This document shows, in pieces, positions 1 through 15,048 of a stretch of DNA of 64,000 nucleotides; the first letter of the stretch is position 1, and every line of letters starts with the position of its first letter. The stretch is from assembly GCA_964473555.1 (NCBI GenBank), contig CAYYPL010000003.1:191166-255165 (forward strand), given 5' to 3'. A program made the translations under genes and the position numbers. Below the pieces are notes generated by a model. The model was not told the DNA's origin and ran no database searches. It saw only the letters and a program-made list of their open reading frames with translations. This DNA comes from an uncultured Chitinophagales bacterium (GTDB taxonomy: Bacteria > Bacteroidota > Rhodothermia > Balneolales > HLUCCA01).

Positions 1-453
1 CTGACGGGTAAACTGCTTGAGTTCAACGGGTAGATCTTTTTTTCGATGATGGTAGACAAAAGACCTGCCGTTTCCATCAATGGTCCCATTTCCGGTAATA
101 CTCACGTTTTCGGCGTGTTGTGTGAAAATCATTCCAAGCTGAGTACCATTTTTGTACCGGGAATAATCCGCCAGGTTTGGAGAGCCTAACAGTGTAGCTC
201 CAGCATCCAAAAACAAATGGATGTGTGATCGTAGCTCAATGGTGCCAATCATAAAATCTCCTGCCGGAACGATCACCGTACCCCCACCTTTTTTTGCCTG
301 GAAGTCAATGGCGGACTGAATCATTTCTGTATTTAGGGTTTTACCGTCGCCAATGGCCCCAAAATCTACAACCGATATGGGTTGCGCGTACAATGTAGTC
401 ATTTTTCCCAGTATCAGGATGATACCAAGGATTGTTTTGAAACTGATTTTCAT
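1..453 (-). CDS. Secreted GH28-like / pectate-lyase-fold glycosidase, N-terminal part (gene runs off the left edge)
   Basis: My own minus-strand translation from the ATG at 453 stays open to base 1: MKISFKTILGIILILGKMTTLYAQPISVVDFGAIGDGKTLNTEMIQSAIDF...ENVSITGNGTIDGNGRSF. It has a signal peptide, and the DFGAxGDGKT and ITGxGTIDGxG motifs are typical of right-handed beta-helix glycosidases. It is absent from the ORF track because there is no stop in the window. Confidence 0.65.
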   Translation of the reverse strand, partial: MKISFKTILGIILILGKMTTLYAQPISVVDFGAIGDGKTLNTEMIQSAIDFQAKKGGGTVIVPAGDFMIGTIELRSHIHLFLDAGATLLGSPNLADYSRYKNGTQLGMIFTQHAENVSITGNGTIDGNGRSFVYHHRKKDLPVELKQFTRQ

Positions 454-483: not shown

Positions 484-1908
484 TTAATCCCAACGATCGG
501 TTCGAAATGATGAAGCGGGTAGCCCGGCTGTGTTGAATAGTGATGCCGAGGAGATATTGTCCCAAGCGTAACGTACCGCTACAGGATTACTCACGGCGGG
601 ATGCGAAACCCTGATCCGATTTGGTTCCAGAATTACTTGAGCTGGATAAAAAATCTGATCATTACCAGCAATCATTAAACTCTGCACCCCATCAGGTCCG
701 CCTACAAGTCCATCGTCGAGATACTCAAAACTGATAATGAGTTCATTTCCAACGAGCTCTGTCGACTTGTAAACCGGCCCGCAATAGACAAGTTCCTTGT
801 TATACGTGTGACCCGCAGCCCAGAGAGCCAGCCGTCTGCCCACTTCCTGTTTGTTGGCAGGATGGATGTTGTTTGCATCACCAATGTCAAGTGTGACAAC
901 CATACCCGTATTGGGTTCTGCCATAGACTCTAATTGTGCTTCCCGAAGTTTTTGAGACGCTATCTCTTGCCCATAATCGTATGGGGCAATCTGTACAAAG
1001 TAAAAAGGGACCTGACCCTGACCCCATCTTTCTCGCCAGGTACCTATCATGGTCGTAAACTTCTCTTTGTACGCTGCTGGATTCCCTGAGTCTGACTCTC
1101 CCTGATACCAGATAAATCCTTTGATGGTAAAGGGAATCAAGGGATGAATCATTGCATTGAACAAAACCGTCGGGGTGTATTGTGTTAACGTATCGGCTTT
1201 GGATATCTGTTCTCTAACCTGTTCATATCCACCAATTCGCTCGAGTTCTTCAACCGGAATCCAGGAGTCTACCGCCGTTCCACCCCAGCTCGAGTGAATG
1301 ACTCCAATGGGAACTCCTAACTTCGAGTGCAGGTGCTTTGCAAAAAAGTAGGCAGTAGCGCTCATCGAAGACACATTTTCCGTGGTAGCAGGTAACCACT
1401 GTCCATTTAACTGTTGAATGGGTTCTCCGGACAAAGCACGTTCTACCATAATCATTCGGATATCGGGATTCGTGGCAGCAGCGATTTCAATTTCAGAATC
1501 CAGGATTGGATTATCCGGCCACCCGGATAAGGGCATTTCCATGTTTGACTGACCCGATGCCACCCAAACTTCTCCAATGGCGACATCATTTATAAGAAGG
1601 GTATCGGAACCCGCTATGACCTCTAAGCGGTGTCCGATATTTGCTGAAGGAGTTACTAGATGAGTTATCCAGGTTCCATCTGGTTTCGCACGGGTAGCAG
1701 ACTGTGCTCCCCAACTGGTTGAAATAACCACTTGTTCTCCGGGCTGAGCCCATCCCCAAATCGCAACTTCTGTCTGCTGCTGTAGAACCATTGAATCCCC
1801 AAATAACCCCGCAAGTCTAAATGCCACATTTTGCACTTGATGGCCACGGTCACATGACATTGCGGACATTACAATGATAACTAAGTATAAGGATGAACTT
1901 AACTTCAT
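484..1908 (-). CDS. Sialate O-acetylesterase-like (SASA/DUF303) carbohydrate esterase, lipoprotein; likely acetyl-mannan esterase by context
   Basis: The VASGQSNMEMPL motif (GQSNM) and the overall 470-aa architecture match the SASA family. There is an N-terminal signal with Cys (SAMSCD). It sits in the mannan locus. Confidence 0.7.
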   Translation of the reverse strand: MKLSSSLYLVIIVMSAMSCDRGHQVQNVAFRLAGLFGDSMVLQQQTEVAIWGWAQPGEQVVISTSWGAQSATRAKPDGTWITHLVTPSANIGHRLEVIAGSDTLLINDVAIGEVWVASGQSNMEMPLSGWPDNPILDSEIEIAAATNPDIRMIMVERALSGEPIQQLNGQWLPATTENVSSMSATAYFFAKHLHSKLGVPIGVIHSSWGGTAVDSWIPVEELERIGGYEQVREQISKADTLTQYTPTVLFNAMIHPLIPFTIKGFIWYQGESDSGNPAAYKEKFTTMIGTWRERWGQGQVPFYFVQIAPYDYGQEIASQKLREAQLESMAEPNTGMVVTLDIGDANNIHPANKQEVGRRLALWAAGHTYNKELVYCGPVYKSTELVGNELIISFEYLDDGLVGGPDGVQSLMIAGNDQIFYPAQVILEPNRIRVSHPAVSNPVAVRYAWDNISSASLFNTAGLPASSFRTDRWD

Positions 1909-1916
1909 CGAATTAG

Positions 1917-3323
1917 TTATGCAATTTCATTGACCGACCGGTTTTTTTCAAGCTCGCCACCGATACGTTTCATCGTCTTTTCATCCAGATTATAGAAAAC
2001 AATGAATCCAACGGCCATGAGTGCACCTATTCCGGCCAGTACACTGATCATGAGACGAATTCCAAGTAACGCCGTATCGGTCTGGGGGACATTCGCTACA
2101 TAGCCAAAGGCCGACAAGAACCATCCACTGATGGCGCCGCCGATGGTCCAACCGAACTTCTGCGACATCGAAGAAGATGAAAAAATGAGTCCAGTTGCCC
2201 TACGACCCGTCTTCCACTCCGAGTAATCGGCGATATCGGCATACATAGACCAAATAAGAGGCAGTACGATCCCTGCTGTGATTCCAATTGCAACATTTAA
2301 AAGAAATATCAGCTCAATGTCAGTTGGACGCAGAAAGTAAAGCATAAAACTCAGCACTGCAGAACCCAGCATCGCGTAAAGAAACGTTGATTTTTTACCT
2401 ATTCGTTCAGAAACGGGTTTGGCGAGGAGTACTCCGATAATATTAGAGGCAAGCCAAATAGACATATAGGCAGAAACCAGTACGGAATAACTCAACTGAC
2501 CGATGAACATGACTTCCTGATCCATAATGTAATAAGTGAAGTAGAATAGCATAGCTCCTTCACGAAGCGAGTTGAAAATGAGAACTGAAATCGCGGCGCC
2601 CAACATGATGAACCAGGGTTTGTTTTTCATCATGTCTTTTAGATCCGAGCGCAGATTACTTTTTTCTACAGCTGGTTCCAGGCGTTCACGGGTTCCTGCG
2701 AATGTCAGGACGAACAAAATAGCAGCCAGAATGGCGTAGATTCCAACAGTAACCTGATAGCCGGTTGAGGGGCCAAGGGTTTCTCCGAAATAATCTATGA
2801 GATAGGTAGCGGTGGCAGTGACAAATAGTCCACCCGAAAAAGCTCCCAGAAATCGGTAGGAAGCCAGGGAGGTACGTTCGGTGGTATCTGAGGTCATTAC
2901 TCCCATAAGAGCAGCATAGGGGACATTCACAGCCGTGTATACCATCATCATCATCGTATAGGTGACATAGGCGTAGACCAGTTTACCAGTCGCGCCAAGG
3001 TCGGGTGTCGTAAACGTAAGGATTCCTATGAGGGCAAAAGGCACTGCAACGAAGAGTAAATAGGGACGAAATTTACCCCAACGTGTGGTGGTTCGATCTC
3101 CTATGAGACCCATAATCGGATCATTTGCTGCATCCCACAAACGGGTTAGCAGGAACATGGTACCCACCGCTGCAGCCGAGATTCCAAACACATCGGTGTA
3201 GAAGAACAGCAAGAACATGGAAAACAGCTTCCAGAACATAGAGGAAGCAAAGTCTCCGAGTCCGTAGGAGACTTTCTCTGTAAATTTGAGCTTCATTGGG
3301 TTGATCGAATTCATATCATGCAC
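1917..3323 (-). CDS. Glycoside-pentoside-hexuronide (GPH):cation symporter, MFS superfamily
   Basis: The N-terminal GLGDF...LLFFYTDVFGI...RLWDAANDPIMGLIGDRTxTRWGKFRPYLL signature is that of MelB/XylP/YicJ-type transporters. About 12 hydrophobic segments. Confidence 0.85.
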   Translation of the reverse strand: MHDMNSINPMKLKFTEKVSYGLGDFASSMFWKLFSMFLLFFYTDVFGISAAAVGTMFLLTRLWDAANDPIMGLIGDRTTTRWGKFRPYLLFVAVPFALIGILTFTTPDLGATGKLVYAYVTYTMMMMVYTAVNVPYAALMGVMTSDTTERTSLASYRFLGAFSGGLFVTATATYLIDYFGETLGPSTGYQVTVGIYAILAAILFVLTFAGTRERLEPAVEKSNLRSDLKDMMKNKPWFIMLGAAISVLIFNSLREGAMLFYFTYYIMDQEVMFIGQLSYSVLVSAYMSIWLASNIIGVLLAKPVSERIGKKSTFLYAMLGSAVLSFMLYFLRPTDIELIFLLNVAIGITAGIVLPLIWSMYADIADYSEWKTGRRATGLIFSSSSMSQKFGWTIGGAISGWFLSAFGYVANVPQTDTALLGIRLMISVLAGIGALMAVGFIVFYNLDEKTMKRIGGELEKNRSVNEIA

Positions 3324-3358: not shown

Positions 3359-4720
3359 TTAAGGGTTCCCCTCGATAGTATTTGCATGCTGGCGAATGAC
3401 ATCCAAAGTCGTGAGGTCATCGGCAAATATCGAGTTCAATCCCTGAGGTTCTTGTGGTGGATCACCCACAAATGGATCACCTGGGCGCCAGCGGGCATCT
3501 TCGTGTTGAGGAATTCCATATCCACCCCAGCTCCAGAAATTGGTTCCAGACAAAGGCGAGTTTAAAGCAATATTGTTTTCAACAATCAGGAATACAAATC
3601 TCAGATAGTTATCTCGGTACGTTATCGCAGTTCCTGGTTCAAATCGTTCAAAATCTCTTCCCAGTCCAAACTCAGACAGAACTGTTGGTTTATTCAGTTG
3701 TTTCGCGTAATCGATATGTTTTTGGATGTAGGCTCGGGCACTATCCTGCGTGACCTGAAAAGATACTTCCATGTTATTCGCATCAAACCATCCCCAGTTT
3801 TTGGCCCACATGTGGAACGTAAGATAGTCCACATCTGGTGAAGCATGGGCCTCTAGGTACATCGTTTCTGAGTTACGGCTACCAGCAAGTCCTTCATTCC
3901 CAGTTGAAAGTAACTGATGTGGGGCCAGTTCTTTGATGAATCGGGCACTTTCGTGCACCCATTTAATGAACTGAGGACCATTTTGAAGCCCTTCGTCCCC
4001 GGATCCGGGTCTGGGTTCATTGGCCAGCTGCCAGGACATAATGGTTGGATCCTGATTGTAATCCATTCCCGTGATTGTGTTTTTCCGGGTAATAACGTGG
4101 GTAATGTACTCTTTCCATGCCTGTTGGGCTGATCCGTTGAAATAAAATCGGGCGGCATGGTTCTGAAATCCGTGCCAGTCGCCAGTCTCACCCGGATCAG
4201 TTGCTGGACCCTCCCCAAACCATTCGCTATACACGCTCATTCCACCCGACCATTCCCACATATTGTTCAGAAATACTACCGCTTTCATGTCCCTTTTGGC
4301 CATCTCAGCGAGTAAAAAATCTAATCCGACAAGCAGATTCTCGTTGATTTCACCGGGAGCCGACTGAAAGGAAGGTTGCAGTGCACGTGTATGATTGGCC
4401 TGTTCAGAGGCCGCAAGAATCCGTAGGTTCGTGATACCCGTTTCTTTGAGTAAATCCAGTTCCTGTATCAATCTGTTTCTATCCCCTTCAGGCCCGGGAG
4501 ATCCCAGGTAAGCTCCGTACCAAAAATTGGTACCCACAAAGCGATAGGTTTCCCCATTGAGTTTAAACTGAGTTCCATCCACCTGAACAAATTCAGCACT
4601 TTTGGGAGTTTTTGAGGAAAAATCGCAACCTGAAAGGAATTGCACTGAAAGTAGTACCCCAAATACATAGACAAGCGGGAGTAGCTTTTTAGTTACAAAT
4701 CGGCTTTTAGTTGATTTCAT
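3359..4720 (-). CDS. GH5 endo-beta-1,4-mannanase, secreted lipoprotein
   Basis: Motifs FVGTNFWYGAYLG, WQLANEPR (acid/base Glu) and LSEFGL (nucleophile Glu). Signal peptide with Cys (FLSGCD). Confidence 0.8.
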   Translation of the reverse strand: MKSTKSRFVTKKLLPLVYVFGVLLSVQFLSGCDFSSKTPKSAEFVQVDGTQFKLNGETYRFVGTNFWYGAYLGSPGPEGDRNRLIQELDLLKETGITNLRILAASEQANHTRALQPSFQSAPGEINENLLVGLDFLLAEMAKRDMKAVVFLNNMWEWSGGMSVYSEWFGEGPATDPGETGDWHGFQNHAARFYFNGSAQQAWKEYITHVITRKNTITGMDYNQDPTIMSWQLANEPRPGSGDEGLQNGPQFIKWVHESARFIKELAPHQLLSTGNEGLAGSRNSETMYLEAHASPDVDYLTFHMWAKNWGWFDANNMEVSFQVTQDSARAYIQKHIDYAKQLNKPTVLSEFGLGRDFERFEPGTAITYRDNYLRFVFLIVENNIALNSPLSGTNFWSWGGYGIPQHEDARWRPGDPFVGDPPQEPQGLNSIFADDLTTLDVIRQHANTIEGNP

Positions 4721-4729
4721 TGTTTTGAG

Positions 4730-5728
4730 TCAGTTCGGTGAATGAGTCTCGTAGGATTTTTCGACCAATACTTTCGTAGCCAGGATACCTTCTTCTTCAG
4801 AAAGTTTACTCCCTTCATATTCAACGCAGATATACTCTTGAAATTCAGATTTCCTGATGATGTCCATCATTCTAAAATAGTCGATAGTAGTCTCAAATCC
4901 CTGAATATCAAATGCATGGGATTTTGCACTAACGGATTTAGCCAATGGCATGAGTTTTTCTACACCGATGTATCTGTTATAGATATCACCATCGCCCCAG
5001 ATAAAGTCTTCGGAAAACGTGAAATTATCAAAATCGACCACTGTTCCGAGTAATGGATGATCGGCTAAACGGATGGTTTCCACCAACCAGTCCGCGTTAC
5101 TCGACATCCCTCCATGATTCTCAACCAGAATCATCAATCCGAATTGTTGGGCTCTTTGTGCCAGTTGATGCAATCCATCAGCAGCCAACTTAACCTGTTC
5201 ACTGGCTTTACCCATACTAAATGCATTCACACGCATGTAGTTGCAACCGAGCTGTTTGGAAGCTTCCATCCATTTTATATGATTCTCAATGGCCTGAGCT
5301 TTCATTTTAGCATCAGGATGACCGATAAATCCTTCTTCATCAACCATCAGCAAGATATTTTTTACCCCTAGTGAGTCCGTTCTTCGTTTGAGCTCATTTA
5401 AAAATGTTGCATCTGTAGCATGCCCGTATATCAGTGTGTTGACATATTCAACGGCATCAAATCCGAGTTCTTTAGCTTTTTCCGGAAAATCGAGCGGATG
5501 AAGAGTACCTTGCCACAATCGATCGGGATCTGAATGAAGTGTACGTTGCCAGGCTTCATAGTCATCCTTTGAGTTACCAAAAATAGCCCTATGGAGTGCC
5601 CATTGAGAAAGTGATAATTTGAGCTGGGAATCGCGATTTCTTTCCATTGTTTCAAATTTCAGAGGATTCACCATGGTACCACCAAGTGCTAAAGTAACTG
5701 AACCAAGAAAATTTTTGCGATTCATCAT
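4730..5728 (-). CDS. Xylose-isomerase-like TIM-barrel protein (sugar phosphate isomerase/epimerase family) with Tat-like signal
   Basis: The N-terminus MMNRKNFLGSVTLALGG resembles a twin-arginine-type leader (RK variant). The body resembles the AP-endonuclease-2/xylose-isomerase TIM-barrel family (VENHGG motif). Confidence 0.6.
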   Translation of the reverse strand: MMNRKNFLGSVTLALGGTMVNPLKFETMERNRDSQLKLSLSQWALHRAIFGNSKDDYEAWQRTLHSDPDRLWQGTLHPLDFPEKAKELGFDAVEYVNTLIYGHATDATFLNELKRRTDSLGVKNILLMVDEEGFIGHPDAKMKAQAIENHIKWMEASKQLGCNYMRVNAFSMGKASEQVKLAADGLHQLAQRAQQFGLMILVENHGGMSSNADWLVETIRLADHPLLGTVVDFDNFTFSEDFIWGDGDIYNRYIGVEKLMPLAKSVSAKSHAFDIQGFETTIDYFRMMDIIRKSEFQEYICVEYEGSKLSEEEGILATKVLVEKSYETHSPN

Positions 5729-6933
5729 TATTTATTTCCAGATGAGTCAGCAACGTACATATCCGGTAGATCATCCTCAAGCCAGACAAACGGATCAGCC
5801 CGAAATTCCACGAAATTTTGCGCACTGATCTGACCAGGGAATGGCGCATAGTAATGATCTCTTCGTTCTCTGTCGTAGGTTGCATTCCGCCATACCAGAA
5901 AGTATGCGATCTGGCGTGTCTTTTCGTTATGAAGTACCGATGATAATATCACATCTGTCCACCAACGAGGATTGGGAATGGCTTCGAGTCCTGTCTCGGT
6001 CAGGGCTGCAACCTTACCCCTGTCGTTGGCAATATCAACCGTGTACTCCAGACTCCGGCGAAAATGTTCTAACTGAATTTCGGGAGGTGTGTCATTTACG
6101 GGATGACCAAGATCCCAATAATTATCCAGTCCAATGATGTCGACATAGGCATCACCCGGATATCCCCATAGATACCCGCTTTCAAAATTCTCGATATCGA
6201 TGCGACTCCTGTCGGGAGAGTACGCATAAATCAGATTATTAAGGCCATGGAAATCACGGAGGTACTCGACTGTGAATCTCCAAAGTGCAATGAAGTCTTC
6301 TTCATTAGTTGACCCCTTGCACCACCAGAACCAGTCCCCGTTATGTTCATGCCAGGGACGAAAAATCACAGGGACTGGTGCCAATTCACGAAAGTATTCG
6401 GCTGCACGATCCAGATTTTGCTTTAGAATAGGATGAAGGTCTCCACCCGGAATGATTCGATGCACAACTGCTGTAGTATCATAAAACGACTTACCGGTTC
6501 CAGGATTGTACATATGCCACTCATACGTCAATATACCACCACGATCAAAGGTACCACGATCTCGTTTCAGCTGGATATCGACACGTGCTTGTCTGGTTGA
6601 GTCGTCAAACTGTGGATTAGCGACATAGTTTACATCCCATCCATACACCGCAGGAAAGGATCCGGAGACATCCTTCACATCAGATCGGATTGAATCGACC
6701 GGAAGATCGGAACTATGCCAGGTGTAGCCATAATCCAGGGTAGCCTGGTGCCCGAACATAAGACCCTGTCCGGCATAGTGATGCAGGTTCTGGTACAAAT
6801 TCTGCGTGAGTTGACCCGCATTGGGATCAACCATAGACATCTGCTCAGAAACATTTAGGTCTGAATGTTTGACACAGCCCATAAAAATTACAACCAAGCT
6901 AATAATAAACAGGTAATTAGATATTTTTATCAT
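5728..6933 (-). CDS. GH26 beta-mannanase, lipoprotein
   Basis: FRPWHEHNGDWFWW matches the GH26 acid/base motif, and ALTETG matches the nucleophile motif. Lipoprotein signal (FMGCVK). Confidence 0.85.
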   Translation of the reverse strand: MIKISNYLFIISLVVIFMGCVKHSDLNVSEQMSMVDPNAGQLTQNLYQNLHHYAGQGLMFGHQATLDYGYTWHSSDLPVDSIRSDVKDVSGSFPAVYGWDVNYVANPQFDDSTRQARVDIQLKRDRGTFDRGGILTYEWHMYNPGTGKSFYDTTAVVHRIIPGGDLHPILKQNLDRAAEYFRELAPVPVIFRPWHEHNGDWFWWCKGSTNEEDFIALWRFTVEYLRDFHGLNNLIYAYSPDRSRIDIENFESGYLWGYPGDAYVDIIGLDNYWDLGHPVNDTPPEIQLEHFRRSLEYTVDIANDRGKVAALTETGLEAIPNPRWWTDVILSSVLHNEKTRQIAYFLVWRNATYDRERRDHYYAPFPGQISAQNFVEFRADPFVWLEDDLPDMYVADSSGNK

Positions 6934-6979: not shown

Positions 6980-8227
6980 CTACCTCTGAGCCAATTCAGT
7001 GTTAATTTCTGAGTTACTTAATTCATTAATCAATGAATGGACCAGAATACAGGCTCGGGAAGTGTGATAAGGACATTTCCATGGACCCACTTTATCATCC
7101 GTCAAAACAGGATTTCCCTGTCGGGAGACGCGAAAATACCACTCCCCGTGATGCCTGTCTATCACATGGTTTGAGATAAATTCCCAAATCGACAAGACCG
7201 TTACCAGGTACTCCGAATTTCCGGAAAGTTTATAGGCGAACATAAGTCCAACCATCGCTTCCGCCTGAGCCCACCAGTGTTTTTCGGTATTGGTCACGGA
7301 ACCATGCTCGCCAGCATTATAGACCCCGCCGTATTCGGTATCAATTGCCTGCCTCAGCACCATTTCGGAGACTTCCAAGGTTACCTGTTCGCAACGCACT
7401 ACCAAATCCGTGCGATGGATTGCCTGGGCTGCATCAAGCATCAACCAGACGGTCTCAATGTCGTGTCCATAGGAGTACACGGAGGTAACAGGGCGCCAGT
7501 TTTCATCAAAAAAGGCATAAAAATGGTGCCCTACTGGATGATAGATTTTGTCTAAAAACACCTCCAGCATCATAACCAGTCGGTCTTTTAGAACCTGATC
7601 CGGCCACACTTTATAGAGTGCGGCATAAGCTTCAAGTAGATGCAAATGAGTGTTTGTTGAACGTGGAGCCATCAAGTCGCTTTCTCCAAGTCTTACATCG
7701 TCAAGTGGACTCCAATCCTGGGTAAAAGCCTCCAAATACGCCTGATAATTGGCTGAGAATGCATTTTTTTCAATCAGATGAAAGAGCTCTATGGCACGAT
7801 CCAGAACGTGCTGGTCTCCTGTTGCATCACAGATTGTAGCATAGGCATAAATTCCGAAACTTTGTGCATATACATGTTTTTTGGAATCTATCGCATTGCC
7901 GGTAGCATCTGTCATCCAGTATAATCCGCCATTGACTGGATCGGTAAATTCATCGTGAAGAATTCGGGCTGCAGCCTGCATCGGGACAAGAAGAGAAGCG
8001 TCGGCAGTAAATTTATAAGAAGCTGCAAAGGTGTACGCGATTCGGGCTATCAGGATTGCAGAACGCTCTGCCTGCGGATGGATTTGATTTTGGGCATCAA
8101 TCCTGCCGTTAAATGAATCTGATACATCCGAATACACACGGTCTTTCCAGTATGGAAGAATATGCGAATTCAGTTCAGTAAATAAGGCTTCTTTGAGTTT
8201 AAGTAACTCAGTTTCAATCTTCATCAA
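6980..8227 (-). CDS. N-acylglucosamine 2-epimerase superfamily; cellobiose/mannobiose 2-epimerase
   Basis: A 415-aa AGE-family (alpha/alpha)6 protein. There is a 4-nt overlap with the upstream GH130 gene. The epimerase-phosphorylase pairing is characteristic of mannan catabolism. Confidence 0.75.
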
Positions 8228-9399
8228 AAGCCTGCTTTCTTATTGGCATTGATCAGGTCTATTCGTTGTTGGACTGATTCTGCTGATCTGTATCCATCTG
8301 AAGGAGTATTCAGCACGTAGTCAAGCAACTGGTCGACACTTGTTGTGGCAACATGGAGCCTGGTATCGGATGAAGCATAATAGATAAAGACACTGCCATT
8401 GTCATCTGCGATCCATCCGTTACTAAATAACACATTCGAAACATCCCCTACGCGTTCGTCGCCTTCTGGACCCATAAACAAACCGCCGGGACGAGCGATA
8501 ATCTTGCCGGGTTCGGCCAAATCAGTCAGAAACAGATACAGTACATAGCGTAATCCGGCCGCTGTATTCCTGACCCCGTGAGCCAGGTGCAACCACCCTT
8601 TTGGCGTTTTGATGGGAGCCGGACCCTGACCGTTTTTGGCTTCTTTTATGGTATGATAGACACGTGGATCAATGACCGTTTCCTGATCGATGACACAGTT
8701 TTCCATAGAATCTGCCAAAGCCCAGCCTATTCCACCACCAGAACCTGCTTCAATAAACCCATCTTGCGGACGAGTATATAACGCATACTTCCCATTCACA
8801 AACTCAGGATGCAACACAACATTTCGTTGTTGTTTGGAATTGGATTTCAGATCAGGAAGTCGTTCCCAGTTTATAAGGTCTTTTGTTCGTACGATTCCAG
8901 CCTGAGCCACTGCACTGGAAGTATCGTGTTTTGGAGCTTCGGGATCTTTTCGTTCGGTGCAGAAAATACCATAGATCCACCCGTCTTCATGTGCAGTCAA
9001 TCTCATATCGTACACATTGGTATCCGGATTCTCTGTCTGAGGTATGACACACGGATACGGCCAGAAAGTAAATTGGTCTATTCCATTGGGACTCTCTGCA
9101 ACTGCGAAAAATGACTTTCTGTCGGAACCTTCTACTCGGGCAACAACCAGATATTTCCCGTTAAACTTAATGGCTCCGGCATTAAAAACGGCTCCAACAC
9201 CGAGTCTTTCTATGAGATACGGGTTGGTTTGTGGATTGAAATCGTAGCGCCAGTTTAAGGGAACATGATTATGGGTCAAAACGGGGTGTTCGTATCGTTG
9301 ATAAACTCCATTGGATACGGCAACAGGACGGTTCGGTCGAGATAATAATGATTGATAATGTTCTTTAAGCGCAGTCAGACGCTTTTCAAATAGTGACAT
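8224..9399 (-). CDS. GH130 4-O-beta-D-mannosyl-D-glucose phosphorylase-like
   Basis: A 391-aa protein with no signal peptide and GH130 beta-propeller-type sequence ([32 protein letters not shown]). Synteny with the epimerase and the GH26/GH5 genes. Confidence 0.8.
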
Positions 9400-9511
9400 G
9401 CTCAGCGATGTAAATAAATAATTCCGATTTCAGTGAACAGAGAAAAAAATCAGGACCCACACCAACCCTTCGATGGGGTCCTGACCAGGATGGATACGAA
9501 ACTTTTAATAG

Positions 9512-9541
9512 AAACCGGATCGTGATGACTCGATCCGGTTT
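9512..9541 (-). terminator. Hairpin downstream of the T9SS protein gene
   Basis: AAACCGGATCG-8nt-CGATCCGGTTT is an 11-bp perfect stem starting 9 nt after the stop. On the minus strand it is followed by a T/A-rich stretch (CTATTAAAAGTTT). Confidence 0.5.
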
Positions 9542-9549
9542 TGAAGATA

Positions 9550-12036
9550 TTATTTAATTAACAACATCTTACGCATTTCTACAAAATTACCTGCTTCGAT
9601 GCGATAGATGTAAGTTCCGGAAGCCAGATTAGCTGCATTGAAATTCAACGTATGCATTCCGGAGGAGTACATTCCCTGAGCAAGGACAGCTACCTGTTGC
9701 CCCAGCACATTGAATACAGTCAGTTTCACATCAGATGCTTGTGGCAATACGAAACTGATATTCGTGGTTGGGTTAAATGGATTCGGATAGTTTTGGCTCA
9801 ATGCAAATCCACTTGGCATCTCGTCAAACTCTACGGAGGTCGTAATGACTTCAAACAGGTTCATTGAGTCGATACCAATTCTACCGGATGCATTGGAGAA
9901 CGTGATGGAGTTAGCACCAGCATTCAGCGTTGCGCCATTCAGACTAACGGTAACGAATGCTTCAGAGTTACCATTGAAAGTCAGGGTTCCGGCTGAAGTA
10001 CCATTAACAGATATATCAATGGATGCTGATTCACCTTCGAGAACTAAACCACGCACAGATACGATGTACGTTCCTGCATTGGTCACAGAGAAGCCCACAT
10101 CTGCTGAACCTGTTTTCATGTCAACATATGCATCACCGTTAGCACAGAGAGTTCCGGTACAGACCAGGTCGGCACCATTGAGGTTAGCTCGGGATCCCAA
10201 AAGTGTTTTCACCACATCATCACCTTTTAAGATCTCCACATTCTCATACTCCATGTATCCCCAGCTACGACCCAATGTGAGTTTATTGGATCCTGCATTT
10301 AATGTTACACCTTCCAGAGTGCCGTATGCCCATGGTAAATCTGCTGTGATATTCATACCAAGAGTAACGAAACCTACTTGAGTATCATTGATCAGAATGT
10401 TAGTCTGACGACCGGGATTTGAATCGGTGTACCAGGTTCTGTGTTTGACTTTGATCGTGTATTGACCCGTCTCTGCAACATCAAATTCCCAGTAAGGAAC
10501 ACCACTACCAGCTACACGAACGGCATAACGATCTTCCATCAGGGTAACTTCCGCATCTCCAGACACGTTGCCATCTTCTGCCTCAAAGGAACCAGCGTTC
10601 ACTAGTTCAGGAGCGGCACCTGCTAAACCTCGTATTTCAGCTTCTTGTTGCTCACGGGCATTATCCCAGGCAGCTTTTTGCTCTGGAAACCAGTTCAAGT
10701 CACCCAATGGGAATCCACCAATACCAGCAGTTTTGTGGGTTTCGTTGGTGTAAGATAGATTCTCAGGAAGCGGCCACTGAATCGAAAGGTTATTGTCTTC
10801 ACGACCCGGATCCCAATAGTAAGATGGTATCGTCTCTGATTGTGCACGAATTGCATTGATAAATGCGATCATTTCATCAAAGTTTTTGGCATAATTGACT
10901 AAACCGGGATTTGGTCCATCGAAGGTGTTTTGAATCACAATATTGTCATACTCATCCGCATAGTTTTGAGTACGTACGTTTACGAATGGTTGCTTGCGCA
11001 ATGGGAACTCATCCGTTGATGTTGACTGAAAGAAAGCATCAATTTCCGGATCTGTGTAATTGGAATTGTTAGAGAGCACTACCACACGCTCAATTTCAAG
11101 ACCATATCGGGTTGGAAGTTCATCGATGTAGAACATACCAGAAAACTGATTGTCTTCCTGTCCTAATCGGATAGAATTGAACCCTTCGGAACCTTCGCCA
11201 TGCCACCAGCCGTTTACAATCAGGTTGTTGGTGAAGAACGAGTTTTTGTGCCAGCCATGAAGCACGGGATGACGTCCAACATTCACGAAGGTATTGTGGT
11301 TGATCCATAGTTCACTTGCAACACCACCTTCAACCTGGATAGCAAATCCACCGATATGGAAGAATGTGTTGTTCACGATATGGACTTTTGCCATATCTGA
11401 CCAGATGGACATCCCACGACCACCCCAGGGTTGATTGGTAGAATGTAGGTTTCTGAATTTGGAGTTTTGAATATAGATTTCAGAACCCTGGCCGTAGAAA
11501 CCTAAGATTCCCCATGCAGCATATTCAAAAATCACATTATCAATCGTGTAATTCGCACCTGTAGCGTCGAATCTGAGGATTTCGTATGGTAAATCACCAA
11601 GTGTGGTTTTTCCATTGATAATCAGATTTTTCAGCAAAACATCGCCGCCGGCTGTTAAGATTTTATCGGATCGTGATCCATCTTCTCTATGTTCGAGTTG
11701 AATCATCGGCGGGTTTTTAAGAGGATCACTTGGATCACCCTCTTCTCCGACAATGCGTAGTGCAAAACCGTTGTTTTCGATTCTTTCAGTGATGTAATAG
11801 AATCCACCTTGCTCGAGTTGATAGATTCGATTCGGATTTGCTCGACTACCGTCAGCGAGTGTATCACCTGCAATAGCATTGTAGAGTGAATTGACGATAA
11901 GATTATTTCCGTCCAGCCAGGGTACAGTCATAATGTCGGAATCCTGTGCCACCGCCTTTTGGGAAGGGATAGCAAGAACCAACGCTAGAAGTACACATGA
12001 CAGCATTTTGTATGTGTTTTTCATTGTTTTCTCCAT
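9550..12036 (-). CDS. T9SS-secreted protein: N-terminal right-handed beta-helix region, two CBM6/35-like modules, Por C-terminal sorting domain
   Basis: Signal peptide. Repetitive N/G/I-rich beta-helix-like segment. GSFEAEDGNVSGDAEV...YTIKVKHRTWY is CBM6/35-like. The C-terminus LSQNYPNPFNPTTNISFVLP...GTYIYRIEAGNFVEMRKMLLIK matches the T9SS C-terminal domain (CTD) consensus. Confidence 0.75.
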   Translation of the reverse strand: MEKTMKNTYKMLSCVLLALVLAIPSQKAVAQDSDIMTVPWLDGNNLIVNSLYNAIAGDTLADGSRANPNRIYQLEQGGFYYITERIENNGFALRIVGEEGDPSDPLKNPPMIQLEHREDGSRSDKILTAGGDVLLKNLIINGKTTLGDLPYEILRFDATGANYTIDNVIFEYAAWGILGFYGQGSEIYIQNSKFRNLHSTNQPWGGRGMSIWSDMAKVHIVNNTFFHIGGFAIQVEGGVASELWINHNTFVNVGRHPVLHGWHKNSFFTNNLIVNGWWHGEGSEGFNSIRLGQEDNQFSGMFYIDELPTRYGLEIERVVVLSNNSNYTDPEIDAFFQSTSTDEFPLRKQPFVNVRTQNYADEYDNIVIQNTFDGPNPGLVNYAKNFDEMIAFINAIRAQSETIPSYYWDPGREDNNLSIQWPLPENLSYTNETHKTAGIGGFPLGDLNWFPEQKAAWDNAREQQEAEIRGLAGAAPELVNAGSFEAEDGNVSGDAEVTLMEDRYAVRVAGSGVPYWEFDVAETGQYTIKVKHRTWYTDSNPGRQTNILINDTQVGFVTLGMNITADLPWAYGTLEGVTLNAGSNKLTLGRSWGYMEYENVEILKGDDVVKTLLGSRANLNGADLVCTGTLCANGDAYVDMKTGSADVGFSVTNAGTYIVSVRGLVLEGESASIDISVNGTSAGTLTFNGNSEAFVTVSLNGATLNAGANSITFSNASGRIGIDSMNLFEVITTSVEFDEMPSGFALSQNYPNPFNPTTNISFVLPQASDVKLTVFNVLGQQVAVLAQGMYSSGMHTLNFNAANLASGTYIYRIEAGNFVEMRKMLLIK

Positions 12037-12069
12037 GATTTGTTTAGGGTAAGTTCTTCGTGTTGAGGG

Positions 12070-15048
12070 TTATTTAAATTGATATCTGACTCCCAGATCC
12101 ATCGTGAAACCGTAGTATTCGATGAAGGTGGGATAGTTTCCAATTGAGGACTGATAGTTCCTGTCGGCTCTGTTGTTCAGGTTGTTGAAGTTGCCAAATA
12201 CCTGAAGGTTGTAGGGGAGCTGTTGCTTCACCGAAAGGTCAAATCGGTAATAGTCTTCTGTGAATCGGTCATTCTCGGGATTCGATGCCAGTGATCTCAG
12301 GATATCAGACTGATATAAGTATGATGCTCGAATAGAGAAGCCTTTGTAATCATATCCCAGCGTGATGTTGGTAATGGAACTGGGCTGGTCCGGCATCCGA
12401 CCCACTCTGAACGTATCTACAATGACATCGCGTGTAAAAGGTGGACGAGCTGGTCGGGGTGTAATCGCGATCGACTCACGAGAGAATTGCGGATACTTTG
12501 TCTCCGACTCGAGTATAGTGAAGTTGACATTCAAGACCAGACCCTTCATAAAAGAGGGTAAATACCAGAAACTGGTCTGCCAATCTAATTCGACTCCTTT
12601 GACCGTGGCCAGATAATCGTTGTTCAGCGATGTTCCAACCCGGGGTACTCCATTCAGATTCGGAATTTTTATCTCAGGTAGAATGGTTTGACCTGCCAGT
12701 AACGGGAAATTGACACCCCAGATGAGTCCAGAGATTTCTTTATAGAATGCAGATACAGTAAAAAATCCCAGTTTATTTCGATACACGGACAGAGACGCAT
12801 CGTAATTCACAGATTCTGAAGTACGTAATTGCGTGTTTGGAGCACTTAACCAGTCCCGGAATCTACTCACATAGGTGATTGGAGCAAACTGACGGAAGGT
12901 CGGACGGGATAAGGTGTGCGTGTAAGCTAATCGGAGATTGATCCAGTCAACCGGCTTAATTTGAAGATGGACCATCGGAAGCAAATGCTGATTACTTCGA
13001 GTTGTGGATGTGTCCCGATAGGCAACGGTGGTAGGTAGGCCATTTACCCCTAAAGGACGATCTTCCGTTCCGAGAGTGAACTTGGCAGAGTAATCAGTAT
13101 GCTCCGTTTCGTATCTCACCCCAGGCATTAAGGTGACATAGTTACCAAAATTGATTTCGGTCATGGCATAAGCAGCTCCGTATTCCTCCATACCCTCATA
13201 ATCGTTACTCAAAGAACCTTGTCCCAGATAATTGAAATACGGCCTTAAGACATCCGTTACCTGTCGAAGCGCACTACCGTTCAACGTGTACCCAAGTGGA
13301 TATTCGCTATTTAAAAAATTGTCCCTGGTGTACGTATCCTGGAAAAATGTGAGCGGGAAACGGTTCATTCCTGTCTGAAGCCCTAAGTCAGGAAGTTGTT
13401 GGGCTACGATATTTCGTGCTTCCTGATCACCGCCGTAGTACATCCCACGACCAATTTCTTCCTGATCATGCACCCTATCCATTCTTCGGTACTTACCACC
13501 TGCTTTTACATACCCATTGATCTGTTTGGTAAGACTAAATGGCAGGGAAACATTCGCAAAAAAACCGGTTTCGTTTTCAGTCGTTTTACGATTCGTGATG
13601 TTCATAAAGTTGAAATAGGTGTTTTCAATATCATTTTTGAAAACACCGGGTATAGTTGCTGGGGGTGCAAATCGAATTTTACCTAGATCAGCTCCGTTGA
13701 AAGCACTTTCTTCCATGAAATCCCAGTAAAAGTCATTGGGATGTTTGTTGAGTGACGACGTGTAGGATCCGCCCACATCAAATCGTATCCAGTCAAAGTC
13801 TTGTTCGAGATTCACACTCGTTGTAAATATAGAAGCATCACCTTTTGATATACTGTAGCTGTACTTATGCTGATTGGACCCCACATTCAGTTCATTTGTC
13901 CTGGTAGATCCGTCATTTCCCAAATAGTTATAAAACGAATTGAATACGACTTTTCCTTCCCAGAAGGAGTAGTCCAACAAGAGATTCCCGCCAAGTCTAC
14001 TGCGCGTATTCGAGTTTTCCCTCAAGTTGAGTGAGGTAACATTGGGTGTTAATACATTCCCATTCTGTGGATTTGGAATCAGTTCGTATCCACCGCTAAA
14101 CTGATCTGCTGAACGGTCATAACTATCTGCATTGAAACCAACGATTACTCCAAACGTGTTGTCAAAGAAGCGCTTTCCAGTTGAACCCACAATCTTGTAA
14201 TTCCCGGTTGTACCTTGCAACGCAGTATACCCCCCAGAAAGCTGAAGGTCTGCAAACAAGCGTTCTGGAGCAGTACGAAGCCTTAAATCTACTGTCCCGC
14301 CAATGGCATCCGCGTCTTTGTCTGGAGTCAAGGCCTTAGTCACTTCGATTCCGTCAAGCATATTACTCGAAACCAAAGACAGATCAACGCTTCTGTCTTG
14401 TGTGTCTACCGAGGGCACTCTGACACCATTCACTGTAACCGTGTTAAATTTTGGTGAAAGTCCACGAATTGCGATTTTGTTCGCTTCGCCCCCGGAACGC
14501 TGAATCGCAACACCTGGCAAACGTCCGATAGACTCAGCTGCATTCACATCGGGTAATTCCTGTATCCTATCCGATGAAACAATATTCGTGATGGTGTTGG
14601 ATGTCCGTTGCTGATTGATAGCCGCCATCTGTCCACGGGCCTGAGCGGTTATAATGACATCTTCGCCCACAACCCCCTGCCATTCCATCTGGAAGTTCAC
14701 CACAAGAGTACGCTGACCAGCGGTTACTGTAATCTCACGGGTAATGGTAGTAAAGCCAATATAGGTCACTTCCAGCACATACGTTCCTGGCCGTACGTTC
14801 GGTATCACATACTGACCATCTAAATCCACCGCAGATCCAATACTGGTCCCTTTGATAATCACATTGGCCCCTAGTAGTGACTCATTCGACCCGACTTCTG
14901 TAACGGTACCTGATATCCGGGTTCCCGTCTGTGCATTTCCATCAATTGGTGACCAAACCAAAACCGAAAAAAGAATCCCGGCAACAATGGAAATATTGCG
15001 AGTAAGCTGTTTGAAGATATAAGACGAAATTTGATGGGTTTTACTCAT
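12070..15048 (-). CDS. TonB-dependent receptor with carboxypeptidase-regulatory-like N-domain (non-SusC, CUT-locus type)
   Basis: N-terminal ISGTVTEVGSNESLLGANVIIKGTSIGSAVDLDGQY (CarbopepD_reg). Plug motif IAIRGLSPKFNTVTVNGVRVPS. 992 aa. Confidence 0.85.
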   Translation of the reverse strand: MSKTHQISSYIFKQLTRNISIVAGILFSVLVWSPIDGNAQTGTRISGTVTEVGSNESLLGANVIIKGTSIGSAVDLDGQYVIPNVRPGTYVLEVTYIGFTTITREITVTAGQRTLVVNFQMEWQGVVGEDVIITAQARGQMAAINQQRTSNTITNIVSSDRIQELPDVNAAESIGRLPGVAIQRSGGEANKIAIRGLSPKFNTVTVNGVRVPSVDTQDRSVDLSLVSSNMLDGIEVTKALTPDKDADAIGGTVDLRLRTAPERLFADLQLSGGYTALQGTTGNYKIVGSTGKRFFDNTFGVIVGFNADSYDRSADQFSGGYELIPNPQNGNVLTPNVTSLNLRENSNTRSRLGGNLLLDYSFWEGKVVFNSFYNYLGNDGSTRTNELNVGSNQHKYSYSISKGDASIFTTSVNLEQDFDWIRFDVGGSYTSSLNKHPNDFYWDFMEESAFNGADLGKIRFAPPATIPGVFKNDIENTYFNFMNITNRKTTENETGFFANVSLPFSLTKQINGYVKAGGKYRRMDRVHDQEEIGRGMYYGGDQEARNIVAQQLPDLGLQTGMNRFPLTFFQDTYTRDNFLNSEYPLGYTLNGSALRQVTDVLRPYFNYLGQGSLSNDYEGMEEYGAAYAMTEINFGNYVTLMPGVRYETEHTDYSAKFTLGTEDRPLGVNGLPTTVAYRDTSTTRSNQHLLPMVHLQIKPVDWINLRLAYTHTLSRPTFRQFAPITYVSRFRDWLSAPNTQLRTSESVNYDASLSVYRNKLGFFTVSAFYKEISGLIWGVNFPLLAGQTILPEIKIPNLNGVPRVGTSLNNDYLATVKGVELDWQTSFWYLPSFMKGLVLNVNFTILESETKYPQFSRESIAITPRPARPPFTRDVIVDTFRVGRMPDQPSSITNITLGYDYKGFSIRASYLYQSDILRSLASNPENDRFTEDYYRFDLSVKQQLPYNLQVFGNFNNLNNRADRNYQSSIGNYPTFIEYYGFTMDLGVRYQFK

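Follow-up and report, generated by a model that had tools for sequence, protein, structure and literature searches.

Within a 64,000-nucleotide stretch of DNA from an uncultured member of the Balneolales (contig CAYYPL010000003.1; the whole stretch is referred to here as the window), a gene at positions 9550-12036 of the minus strand encodes a protein of 828 amino acids and directly follows the gene for a TonB-dependent receptor (TBDR). This protein, hereafter the window protein, is probably a dedicated partner of that receptor: a non-catalytic glycan-capture protein, anchored by a secretion system of type IX (T9SS), that works with a TBDR of the type known from carbohydrate utilisation loci containing TBDRs (CUT loci) and is the beta-mannan member of its family. 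For the window protein itself, we infer surface anchoring, glycan binding by its beta-helix, a lack of catalysis and contact with the TBDR. An earlier note on this DNA had proposed a surface glycan-capture protein at the position of a SusD, and this reading is now supported by near-invariant synteny, by co-divergence of the two genes, by a link between the long form of the family and mannan loci, and by a remote kinship with lipoproteins associated with SusC/SusD pairs. Glycan importers that depend on TonB and have a binding partner at the surface are systems of an already known kind, to which the T9SS-sorted beta-helix form appears to be a new addition.

Pairing and co-divergence with the receptor

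The partner and its receptor are arranged as follows:

9550-12036, minus strand: beta-helix protein with a carbohydrate-binding module (CBM) of family 35, T9SS-sorted, 828 amino acids (open reading frame, Pfam, NCBIfam, AlphaFold2)
12037-12069, minus strand: spacer of 33 nucleotides between the TBDR stop codon and the partner start codon (sequence)
12070-15048, minus strand: TBDR, 992 amino acids, with a CarboxypepD_reg-like N-terminal domain, plug and barrel (Pfam, NCBIfam)

The partner gene thus lies directly downstream of the receptor gene, as the earlier note had said, with a spacer one nucleotide shorter than the 34 nucleotides given there. The description of the receptor as non-SusC holds. 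It is of the TonB-Xanth-Caul type (TIGR01782, 375.9 bits against a cut-off of 310) and fails the SusC model TIGR04056 (55.8 bits against 368), which it matches in the N-terminal domain only.

Relatives of the window protein are numerous. A word-indexed search returned 422, most of about 830 amino acids, from Balneolales, Melioribacter/Ignavibacteria, KSB1 and Acidobacteriota; those that bear a name are called 'hypothetical', 'T9SS type A sorting domain-containing' or 'CBM35 domain-containing'. In a scan of relatives' contigs the generic T9SS-tail pattern QNYPNPFN prevailed; the majority of the 80 loci matched through the tail only, and they were re-screened with the N-terminal domain. Used alone as the query of an exhaustive HMMER search, the helix domain gave 786 clusters (50% identity) at E ≤ 1e-3. 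The matches fall into two size classes, a long form of about 800-900 amino acids and a short form of about 520-620 amino acids that consists of helix and sorting domain, with a Por tail in 9 of 9 tested. The helix family lacks a Pfam or NCBIfam model and is unnamed.

A homologue of the window TBDR, 32-64% identical to it, lies directly upstream on the same strand and in strict adjacency at 59 of 62 sites, with a median gap of 49 nucleotides over the 59 pairs. This holds for all 32 long-form sites and for 19 of 20 arbitrarily chosen short-form sites, and the paired sites come from Balneolales, Rhodothermia, Ignavibacteria/Melioribacter, KSB1 and Acidobacteriota. On Pfam-annotated contigs of Melioribacter, KSB1, Acidobacteriota and Balneolaceae, the family gene comes right after a CarboxypepD_reg-Plug receptor of about 990 amino acids. 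Absence of conserved synteny had been named in the earlier note as grounds for giving up the proposal; synteny is conserved. The three exceptions comprise a site at a contig end, a site with a gap of about 650 nucleotides and one true exception (site L121; C7:71000-89000 of another genome, G085, with the gene at 8769-10505 of the site). At L121, ORFs of 207 and 618 amino acids take the upstream position in place of a TBDR homologue, and the contig carries another gene of the family at a distance of about 14 kb. At two other sites (L119 and L002) a tandem arrangement TBDR-partner-TBDR-partner is found, which resembles the tandem susCD pairs of some Bacteroides polysaccharide utilisation loci (PULs).

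The two genes also diverge together. Pairwise distances between receptors correlate with those between partners across 60 pairs (r = 0.94, Mantel p 0.001), and the correlation persists among distant pairs only (r = 0.75).

The pairing appears to be specific to one receptor clade. Two further TBDR genes are present on the same contig, one at C3:178627-181041 on the plus strand (804 amino acids, with a carboxypeptidase-regulatory-like domain by Pfam) and one at C3:302435-305131 on the minus strand, 24% identical to the window TBDR. By tblastn the genome has the beta-helix gene in a single copy, so these two receptors are without such a partner.

Architecture of the window protein

The ORF at 9550-12036 is read on the minus strand; a plus-strand reading was ruled out, that frame being full of stops. 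Public gene calls begin at Met5 and give 824 amino acids instead of 828. Within the gene, the following parts were delimited:

11947-12036, minus strand: Sec type-I signal peptide, residues 1-30, cleavage AVA/QD (read by eye from the sequence)
10612-11943, minus strand: right-handed parallel beta-helix, residues 32-475, the family-defining domain (AlphaFold2)
10684-10710, minus strand: PxGDLNWFP motif, residues 443-451 (154-sequence family alignment)
10198-10608, minus strand: CBM35 module 1, residues 477-613, with FEAEDG at its start, residues 483-488 (Pfam PF16990 and AlphaFold2)
9841-10170, minus strand: second beta-sandwich, residues 623-732, weakly CBM35-like (AlphaFold2 and phmmer)
9553-9801, minus strand: T9SS type-A C-terminal sorting domain, residues 746-828 (TIGR04183, PF18962)

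The N-terminus, read by eye, is devoid of a lipobox, and the signal is of the signal peptidase I (SPI) type rather than that of a lipoprotein. Ala30 and Gln31, the latter being the first residue after the cleavage site, are conserved at 83% and 85% in the family alignment. The N-terminal region that had been described as parallel-beta-helix-like folds into a right-handed beta-helix in the AlphaFold2 models. Modelled alone, this domain reaches a predicted local distance difference test score (pLDDT) of 95.3 and a predicted TM-score (pTM) of 0.94, and the whole protein, modelled from a 40-sequence alignment, has a pLDDT of 86.5. In the whole-protein model the beta-helix (about residues 32-475) ends in two helices that form a helical linker, followed by the sandwiches at 477-613 and 623-732 and the sorting domain at 746-826. 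The Pfam Beta_helix model matches residues 160-275 at a sub-threshold score (22.2 bits against a cut-off of 25.9). The stretch PxGDLNWFP near the end of the helix domain is the most conserved of the family, with G445 at 100%, L447 at 98% and W449 at 96%, and could serve either as a structural cap or for docking.

The two CBM6/35-like modules of the earlier note are both present by fold, as two beta-sandwiches; by sequence the first is clear, and the second is weak. Module 1 carries the expected EAEDG-type motif as FEAEDG and matches CBM_35 (PF16990) at residues 515-601 with an E-value of 1.9e-11 (44.7 bits against a cut-off of 28). The same model is matched by 40 of 40 orthologues, among which W516, W569, W592, N550 and N584 are conserved. 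A second CBM35-like Pfam stretch is sub-threshold, and phmmer gives the second sandwich weak matches to CBM35 chains in the PDB (5x7o, E 0.008; 3zm8, a GH26-CBM35 mannanase, 0.034; 2vzp, 0.09). The Por C-terminal sorting domain was recovered at about residues 750-825 by both TIGR04183 (45.2 bits against 23) and the Por_Secre_tail model PF18962 (41.1 against 27), and a gene for the PorU sortase is present in the same genome (C8:41896-45339; NF033707, 1051 bits against a cut-off of 420).

No family of glycoside hydrolases (GHs), polysaccharide lyases (PLs) or carbohydrate esterases (CEs) in Pfam or NCBIfam is matched by the 828-residue protein, in agreement with the absence of a GH or PL catalytic signature reported before. 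Neither the entire protein nor CBM module 1 has a sequence match in the PDB. When the complete model was compared by Foldseek, all matches were CBM-driven and of low TM, and they are uninformative on the helix.

Helix conservation: binder or enzyme

Conservation within the helix separates into a part common to the family and a part confined to the long form. Nineteen helix positions are more than 85% identical in both long and short forms. They include the N-cap (D58, Y72, L74, Y80), the ladder N222, T224, H247-N248-T249 and N270-N271, the positions N196, G206 and Y429, and P443, G445, D446, L447 and W449 of the PxGDLNWFP motif. No family-wide set of carboxylates was found in the central helix coils of the 154-sequence alignment. 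Thirteen further helix positions are conserved in the long form only, and a subset of these (Q113, G142, Q202, W204, Q234, R255, W278 and E281) recurs at a spacing of about one coil and is kept entirely in the window protein. This subset has the pattern expected of a substrate-specific binding groove and marks a candidate binding face.

It is improbable, if worth taking seriously, that the helix is instead the catalytic domain of a new family of hydrolases, lyases or esterases, the protein being a surface endo-enzyme that is targeted by its CBM35 and makes the oligosaccharides taken up by the TBDR. The right-handed beta-helix is the fold of PL1, PL3, PL6 and PL9, of GH28, GH49, GH55, GH87 and GH91, and of CE8, and the best PDB matches of the helix are to PL6, RbmB, DFA-IIIase and GH87. 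A CBM combined with a T9SS tail is a build characteristic of secreted enzymes, among them the 867-residue GH5-like protein of the same locus, and acidic and basic residues that might serve catalysis (D166, R195, D216, E221, H247 and R317) are conserved. These fold matches are, however, weak and generic. Helix-only Foldseek against the PDB gave as its best match the PL6 entry 7dmk, with an E-value of 7e-4, a query TM-score (TMq) of 0.46 and 11% identity; the others, to PL6 lyases, Rhombotarget A, the RbmB lyase, DFA-IIIase and GH87, have TMq ≤ 0.46 and identities of 11-18%. The AlphaFold and Foldseek analysis suggested in the earlier note thus confirmed the beta-helix and gave only generic fold matches, and no clear hit to a characterised PL or GH family unrelated to mannan came up. 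No Pfam or NCBIfam enzyme family is matched, and the hhalign probability for GH28 is 4%.

The family distribution and the candidate residues also argue against catalysis. Members of the same helix family follow TBDRs for neutral mannan and xylan as well as for acidic pectin, and one conserved catalytic chemistry is unlikely across loci for chemically unrelated glycans. The enzymes of PULs shuffle among loci, whereas the beta-helix gene is locked to its TBDR. Position 216 is variable (D/E/K/N/A), with Ala in the window protein and, among its close relatives, D, E, K or N, and Glu221, present in 94% of long forms, is Val only in the window protein (codon 11374-11376, minus strand) and in its 95%-identical relative. 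A catalytic site formed by D216, E221 and H247 was rejected on account of these two positions. Asn227 is replaced by His throughout the close clade. Furthermore, the characterised beta-helix neighbours of susCD genes are binders without active sites (bioRxiv 10.64898/2026.03.13.711244). The earlier note's own alternative, a new beta-helix mannan-active enzyme, is weakened accordingly by the range of glycan types, by the lack of family-wide carboxylates and by Val221.

Substrate context

The long form keeps close company with enzymes of mannan breakdown. At least 27 of 32 long-form sites carry homologues of the GH130 of the window (62-71% identical), of its 2-epimerase, or of both, often together with GH26 or GH5 as well. 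To judge from these neighbours, the CBM35-bearing long form, including the window protein, is the beta-mannan version of the family. The pooled neighbours of the 20 short-form sites comprise GH10 (four times), GH115, GH3, GH28, PL9, PL11, PL2, GH88, GH94, GH2 and UxaC; the tally runs over all 20 loci, and its families are assigned to the set rather than to any single locus. They indicate that short forms sit in xylan, pectin/rhamnogalacturonan and beta-glucan loci. With one helix family in loci for several glycans, the helix family is not bound to a single glycan.

The CBM35 modules are the sole parts of the window protein with a recognised carbohydrate-binding signature, beta-helices are often rigid stalks in surface proteins, and many adhesins are found among T9SS cargo. 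One could picture the protein as an adhesin or spacer of a general kind: its CBM35 modules would hold the cell to particles rich in mannan, the helix would be a rigid stalk, and the link to the TBDR would reflect co-expression only. We regard this as very unlikely: about 100 of 154 family representatives are without any CBM and yet keep the pairing with a TBDR, the helix is the conserved and co-diverging part, and a stalk would not need the subfamily-specific Trp, Gln, Arg and Glu residues that the helix carries.

Remote relatives and known systems

The helix family has remote relatives among the DUF4957 proteins of Bacteroidia. Compared by hhalign, the helix-family profile and a profile of seven DUF4957 proteins match with 98.4% probability (E 5.4e-15, 199 columns), and a control comparison with a GH28 profile gives 4.3%. 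Six of the seven DUF4957 proteins have lipoprotein-type N-termini, read by eye, and the three that were scanned with Pfam all have the architecture fn3-DUF4957-DUF5123. Their loci show the gene order SusC-sized, SusD-sized, DUF4957 in 6 of 6, with SusD confirmed by Pfam in three and a SusC-type receptor in two. In the phylum sample, the DUF4957 lipoproteins are distributed in a way nearly complementary to the T9SS beta-helix family, a single genome (G111) having both; in one taxonomic family with DUF4957 in 5 of 10 genomes, the T9SS form occurs in 0 of 28.

Proteins of comparable build have been characterised in Bacteroides thetaiotaomicron, where the beta-helix proteins BT1030 and BT1026 lie beside susCD pairs in the PUL for rhamnogalacturonan II (RG-II). 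Both bind homogalacturonan and RG-II, as measured by gel shift and isothermal titration calorimetry, and active-site residues are not conserved in them; BT1030 is membrane-associated and required for growth on RG-II (bioRxiv 10.64898/2026.03.13.711244). The fn3-DUF4957-DUF5123 lipoproteins and the window protein share a homologous beta-helix core, adjoin a TonB-dependent importer with a carboxypeptidase-regulatory-like N-terminal domain, and are predicted to reside at the surface. Unlike these lipoproteins, the window protein is predicted to be T9SS-anchored after export with an SPI signal, in place of a lipid anchor with a signal peptidase II signal, and has no fn3 domain. It directly follows a TonB-Xanth-Caul TBDR with no SusD gene between. 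Further differences are its C-terminal PxGDLNWFP motif and, as a trait of the mannan subfamily, the two CBM35-like modules.

The comparison with SusC/SusD (RagA/RagB) runs along the same lines. In both systems a TBDR is followed by a partner in strict adjacency, the two co-diverge, and the partner is predicted to be a surface glycan binder; both head loci for many glycans, have paralogues that multiplied within genomes (up to 6 here) and probably form their own transcription unit. In contrast to SusD, the window protein consists of a beta-helix and sandwiches instead of a tetratricopeptide-repeat-like alpha-helical fold, and is T9SS-sorted instead of being a lipoprotein. The SusD models PF07980, PF14322 and PF12771 give no match to it at E ≤ 0.01 or at E ≤ 1. 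The window TBDR for its part fails the SusC model, and only the position after a TBDR is common to SusD and the partner. That the protein takes the place of SusD, as the earlier note suggested, therefore holds for its position; judged by homology, it is closer to a surface glycan-binding protein (SGBP) than to SusD. Five true SusD homologues occur elsewhere in the same genome, so that the beta-helix pair would be a parallel system rather than a lineage-wide replacement of SusD.

With the CUT loci of Xanthomonas and Caulobacter (SuxA, MalA, NagA), the window locus shares the TIGR01782 subfamily of TBDR and the combination of a TBDR with glycoside hydrolases, a glycoside-pentoside-hexuronide (GPH) symporter and a ROK regulator. 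The TBDRs of CUT loci are not known to work with a dedicated surface partner, and Proteobacteria are not known to have a T9SS. The window TBDR differs from them in its SusC-like carboxypeptidase-regulatory N-terminal domain and in the T9SS beta-helix gene next to it.

That a parallel beta-helix can bind glycan without catalysis has a precedent in CBM89, a beta-helix CBM of a GH10 xylanase from the capybara gut that is cited as the fold relative of BT1030 and BT1026 (in bioRxiv 10.64898/2026.03.13.711244). CBM89 differs in being a module within an enzyme instead of a stand-alone partner of a TBDR, and it is not among the top 50 Foldseek matches in the PDB. The same gene arrangement as in the window can be read from the table of the xylan cluster of Rhodothermus marinus, in which Rmar_1070 (a non-SusC TBDR) is followed by Rmar_1071 (a cell-attached hypothetical protein with a Por domain), the two being predicted to be co-transcribed; Rmar_1071 was left as hypothetical with no role assigned (PMC6987092). 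Rhodothermia genomes do carry the family, and Rmar_1071 is a candidate member.

The glycan-capture reading has several points against it. The kinship with DUF4957/DUF5123 exists at profile level only: the window protein has no match to PF16318 or PF17161 at E ≤ 10, and two short-form paralogues give faint matches, at E 0.09 and 0.5, far under the cut-offs. The reach of the precedent is limited by BT1030 and BT1026 being only probably of the fn3-DUF4957-DUF5123 kind. Adjacency and co-divergence would also come from plain operon co-inheritance, in which the genes evolve as a unit and contact is not implied. The conserved 'stripe' on the helix is derived from sequence periodicity, not from model coordinates. 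Fairly conserved charged residues do occur throughout the family (D58, D166, R195, D216, H247, R317, D342 and D446), and the beta-helix is a fold characteristic of polysaccharide lyases, GH28-like hydrolases and CE8 esterases.

Strict pairing and co-divergence are equally what would be expected of a protein that serves the TBDR as a subunit for assembly, stability or gating, or as a link for T9SS attachment, with specificity residing in the TBDR and the CBMs; the most conserved features, namely the N-cap residues D58, Y72 and Y80, the Asn ladders and PxGDLNWFP, are indeed independent of substrate. We give such a purely auxiliary role little credence, as the helix positions conserved within a subfamily go with the kind of glycan that the locus handles, the distant relatives in Bacteroidia occur alongside SusD and occupy the place of an SGBP, and the susCD-adjacent beta-helix proteins of B. 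thetaiotaomicron, which are only probably of the same Pfam families as these relatives, bind glycan directly (bioRxiv 10.64898/2026.03.13.711244).

Proposed mechanism

For a dedicated glycan-capture partner, the following sequence of events can be envisaged. The protein would be exported by the Sec pathway and cleaved after AVA, leaving Gln31 at its N-terminus, and its C-terminal domain would then take it through the type IX system to the far side of the outer membrane. PorU would cut off this domain and attach the partner to the cell surface. There, the two CBM35-like modules and the stripe of Gln, Trp, Arg and Glu on one helix face would bind chains of mannan or glucomannan. The chains would be cut by surface mannanases, namely the T9SS GH5-like/CBM35 enzyme encoded outside the window and the GH5 and GH26 lipoproteins, and the helix partner would hand the fragments to the adjoining TBDR. 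Inside the cell, the GPH symporter, the 2-epimerase and the GH130 phosphorylase would complete the pathway.

More tentatively, the partner might cap the TBDR barrel as SusD caps SusC, acting as a T9SS-anchored lid or substrate-loading subunit within a stable complex; we consider this possible but rather doubtful. If true, it would constitute a third architecture of TonB-dependent glycan import beside the SusCD 'pedal bins' and the lone CUT-type receptors, built from the same beta-helix stock as the SGBPs of Bacteroidia, and Rhodothermia, Ignavibacteria, KSB1 and allies would take up glycans mainly by means of the pair.

Distribution and significance

TonB-dependent glycan import is known mainly from the SusC/SusD pairs of Bacteroidia and from the lone receptors of Proteobacteria. 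The pair described here appears to be the counterpart in large and mostly uncultured lineages, degraders of polymers from plants and algae in soils, sediments and saline waters, namely in Balneolales/Rhodothermia, Ignavibacteria, KSB1 and some Acidobacteriota. In the phylum sample the family occurs in 70 of 401 genomes, with up to 6 copies per genome, and it was not found in the three most heavily sampled families lacking it (0 of 87, 0 of 28 and 0 of 21 genomes). With no model for the family, its members bear the labels 'hypothetical' or 'T9SS sorting domain protein', and these loci therefore escape PUL predictors that look for SusD. The pair could serve as a marker for SusD-independent glycan loci and would tie the T9SS to nutrient uptake.

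Literature searches found no published description of a TBDR-beta-helix pair, and the terms 'T9SS', 'type IX', 'Ignavibacteri' and 'Rhodotherm' do not occur in the text of a 2026 review of bacterial glycoside transporters. New in the present work are the quantified link between the long form and mannan, a profile comparison with DUF4957/DUF5123 that includes a control, the helix positions specific to a subfamily, and the putative terminator after the pair (see below). The mannan subfamily, with its CBM35 modules, conserved helix stripe and clear substrate, is a convenient test case, and cultured relatives exist in Melioribacter, Rhodothermus and Balneola.

The mannan locus and its transcription

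Downstream of the partner gene, the window carries the following features on the same strand:

9441-9541, minus strand: two strong hairpins after the partner stop codon, at 9512-9541 and 9448-9486 (RNA fold)
8224-9399, minus strand: GH130 (Pfam/NCBIfam)
6980-8227, minus strand: cellobiose/mannobiose 2-epimerase (Pfam/NCBIfam)
5728-6933, minus strand: GH26 lipoprotein (Pfam/NCBIfam; lipoprotein signal by eye)
4730-5728, minus strand: xylose-isomerase-like TIM barrel, exported (Pfam/NCBIfam)
3359-4720, minus strand: GH5 lipoprotein (Pfam/NCBIfam; lipoprotein signal by eye)
1917-3323, minus strand: GPH symporter (Pfam/NCBIfam)
484-1908, minus strand: SASA esterase lipoprotein (Pfam/NCBIfam; lipoprotein signal by eye)
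1-453, minus strand: GH28-like gene, the first 151 codons of 511 amino acids, running off the window (Pfam/NCBIfam)

The hairpin region lies in the 150-nucleotide gap after the partner gene and folds with -42 kcal/mol (z = -4.6), none of 200 shuffled sequences being as stable. The second hairpin is a 17-bp stem followed by U7 and is likely to be an intrinsic terminator or attenuator that separates the TBDR-partner pair from the enzyme genes. With a terminator-like hairpin in this place, the TBDR and its partner may form their own transcription unit.

The mannan locus extends beyond the start of the window (C3:178000-191165), with the rest of the GH28-like gene and then a cupin/mannose-6-phosphate-isomerase-like gene. 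On the opposite strand, genes follow for a metallophosphoesterase, for the 867-residue protein with GH5-like, F5-8, Big_7, CBM35 and T9SS domains, for a second GH26 lipoprotein and for a ROK regulator. Candidates for a surface endo-mannanase are thus already present in the locus. The GH28-like gene is unexpected in a mannan locus. The xylose-isomerase-like TIM barrel appears to be a conserved, unexplained part of these mannan loci; it recurs, at 70% identity, in another mannan locus of the Balneolaceae, again beside a GH26 gene.

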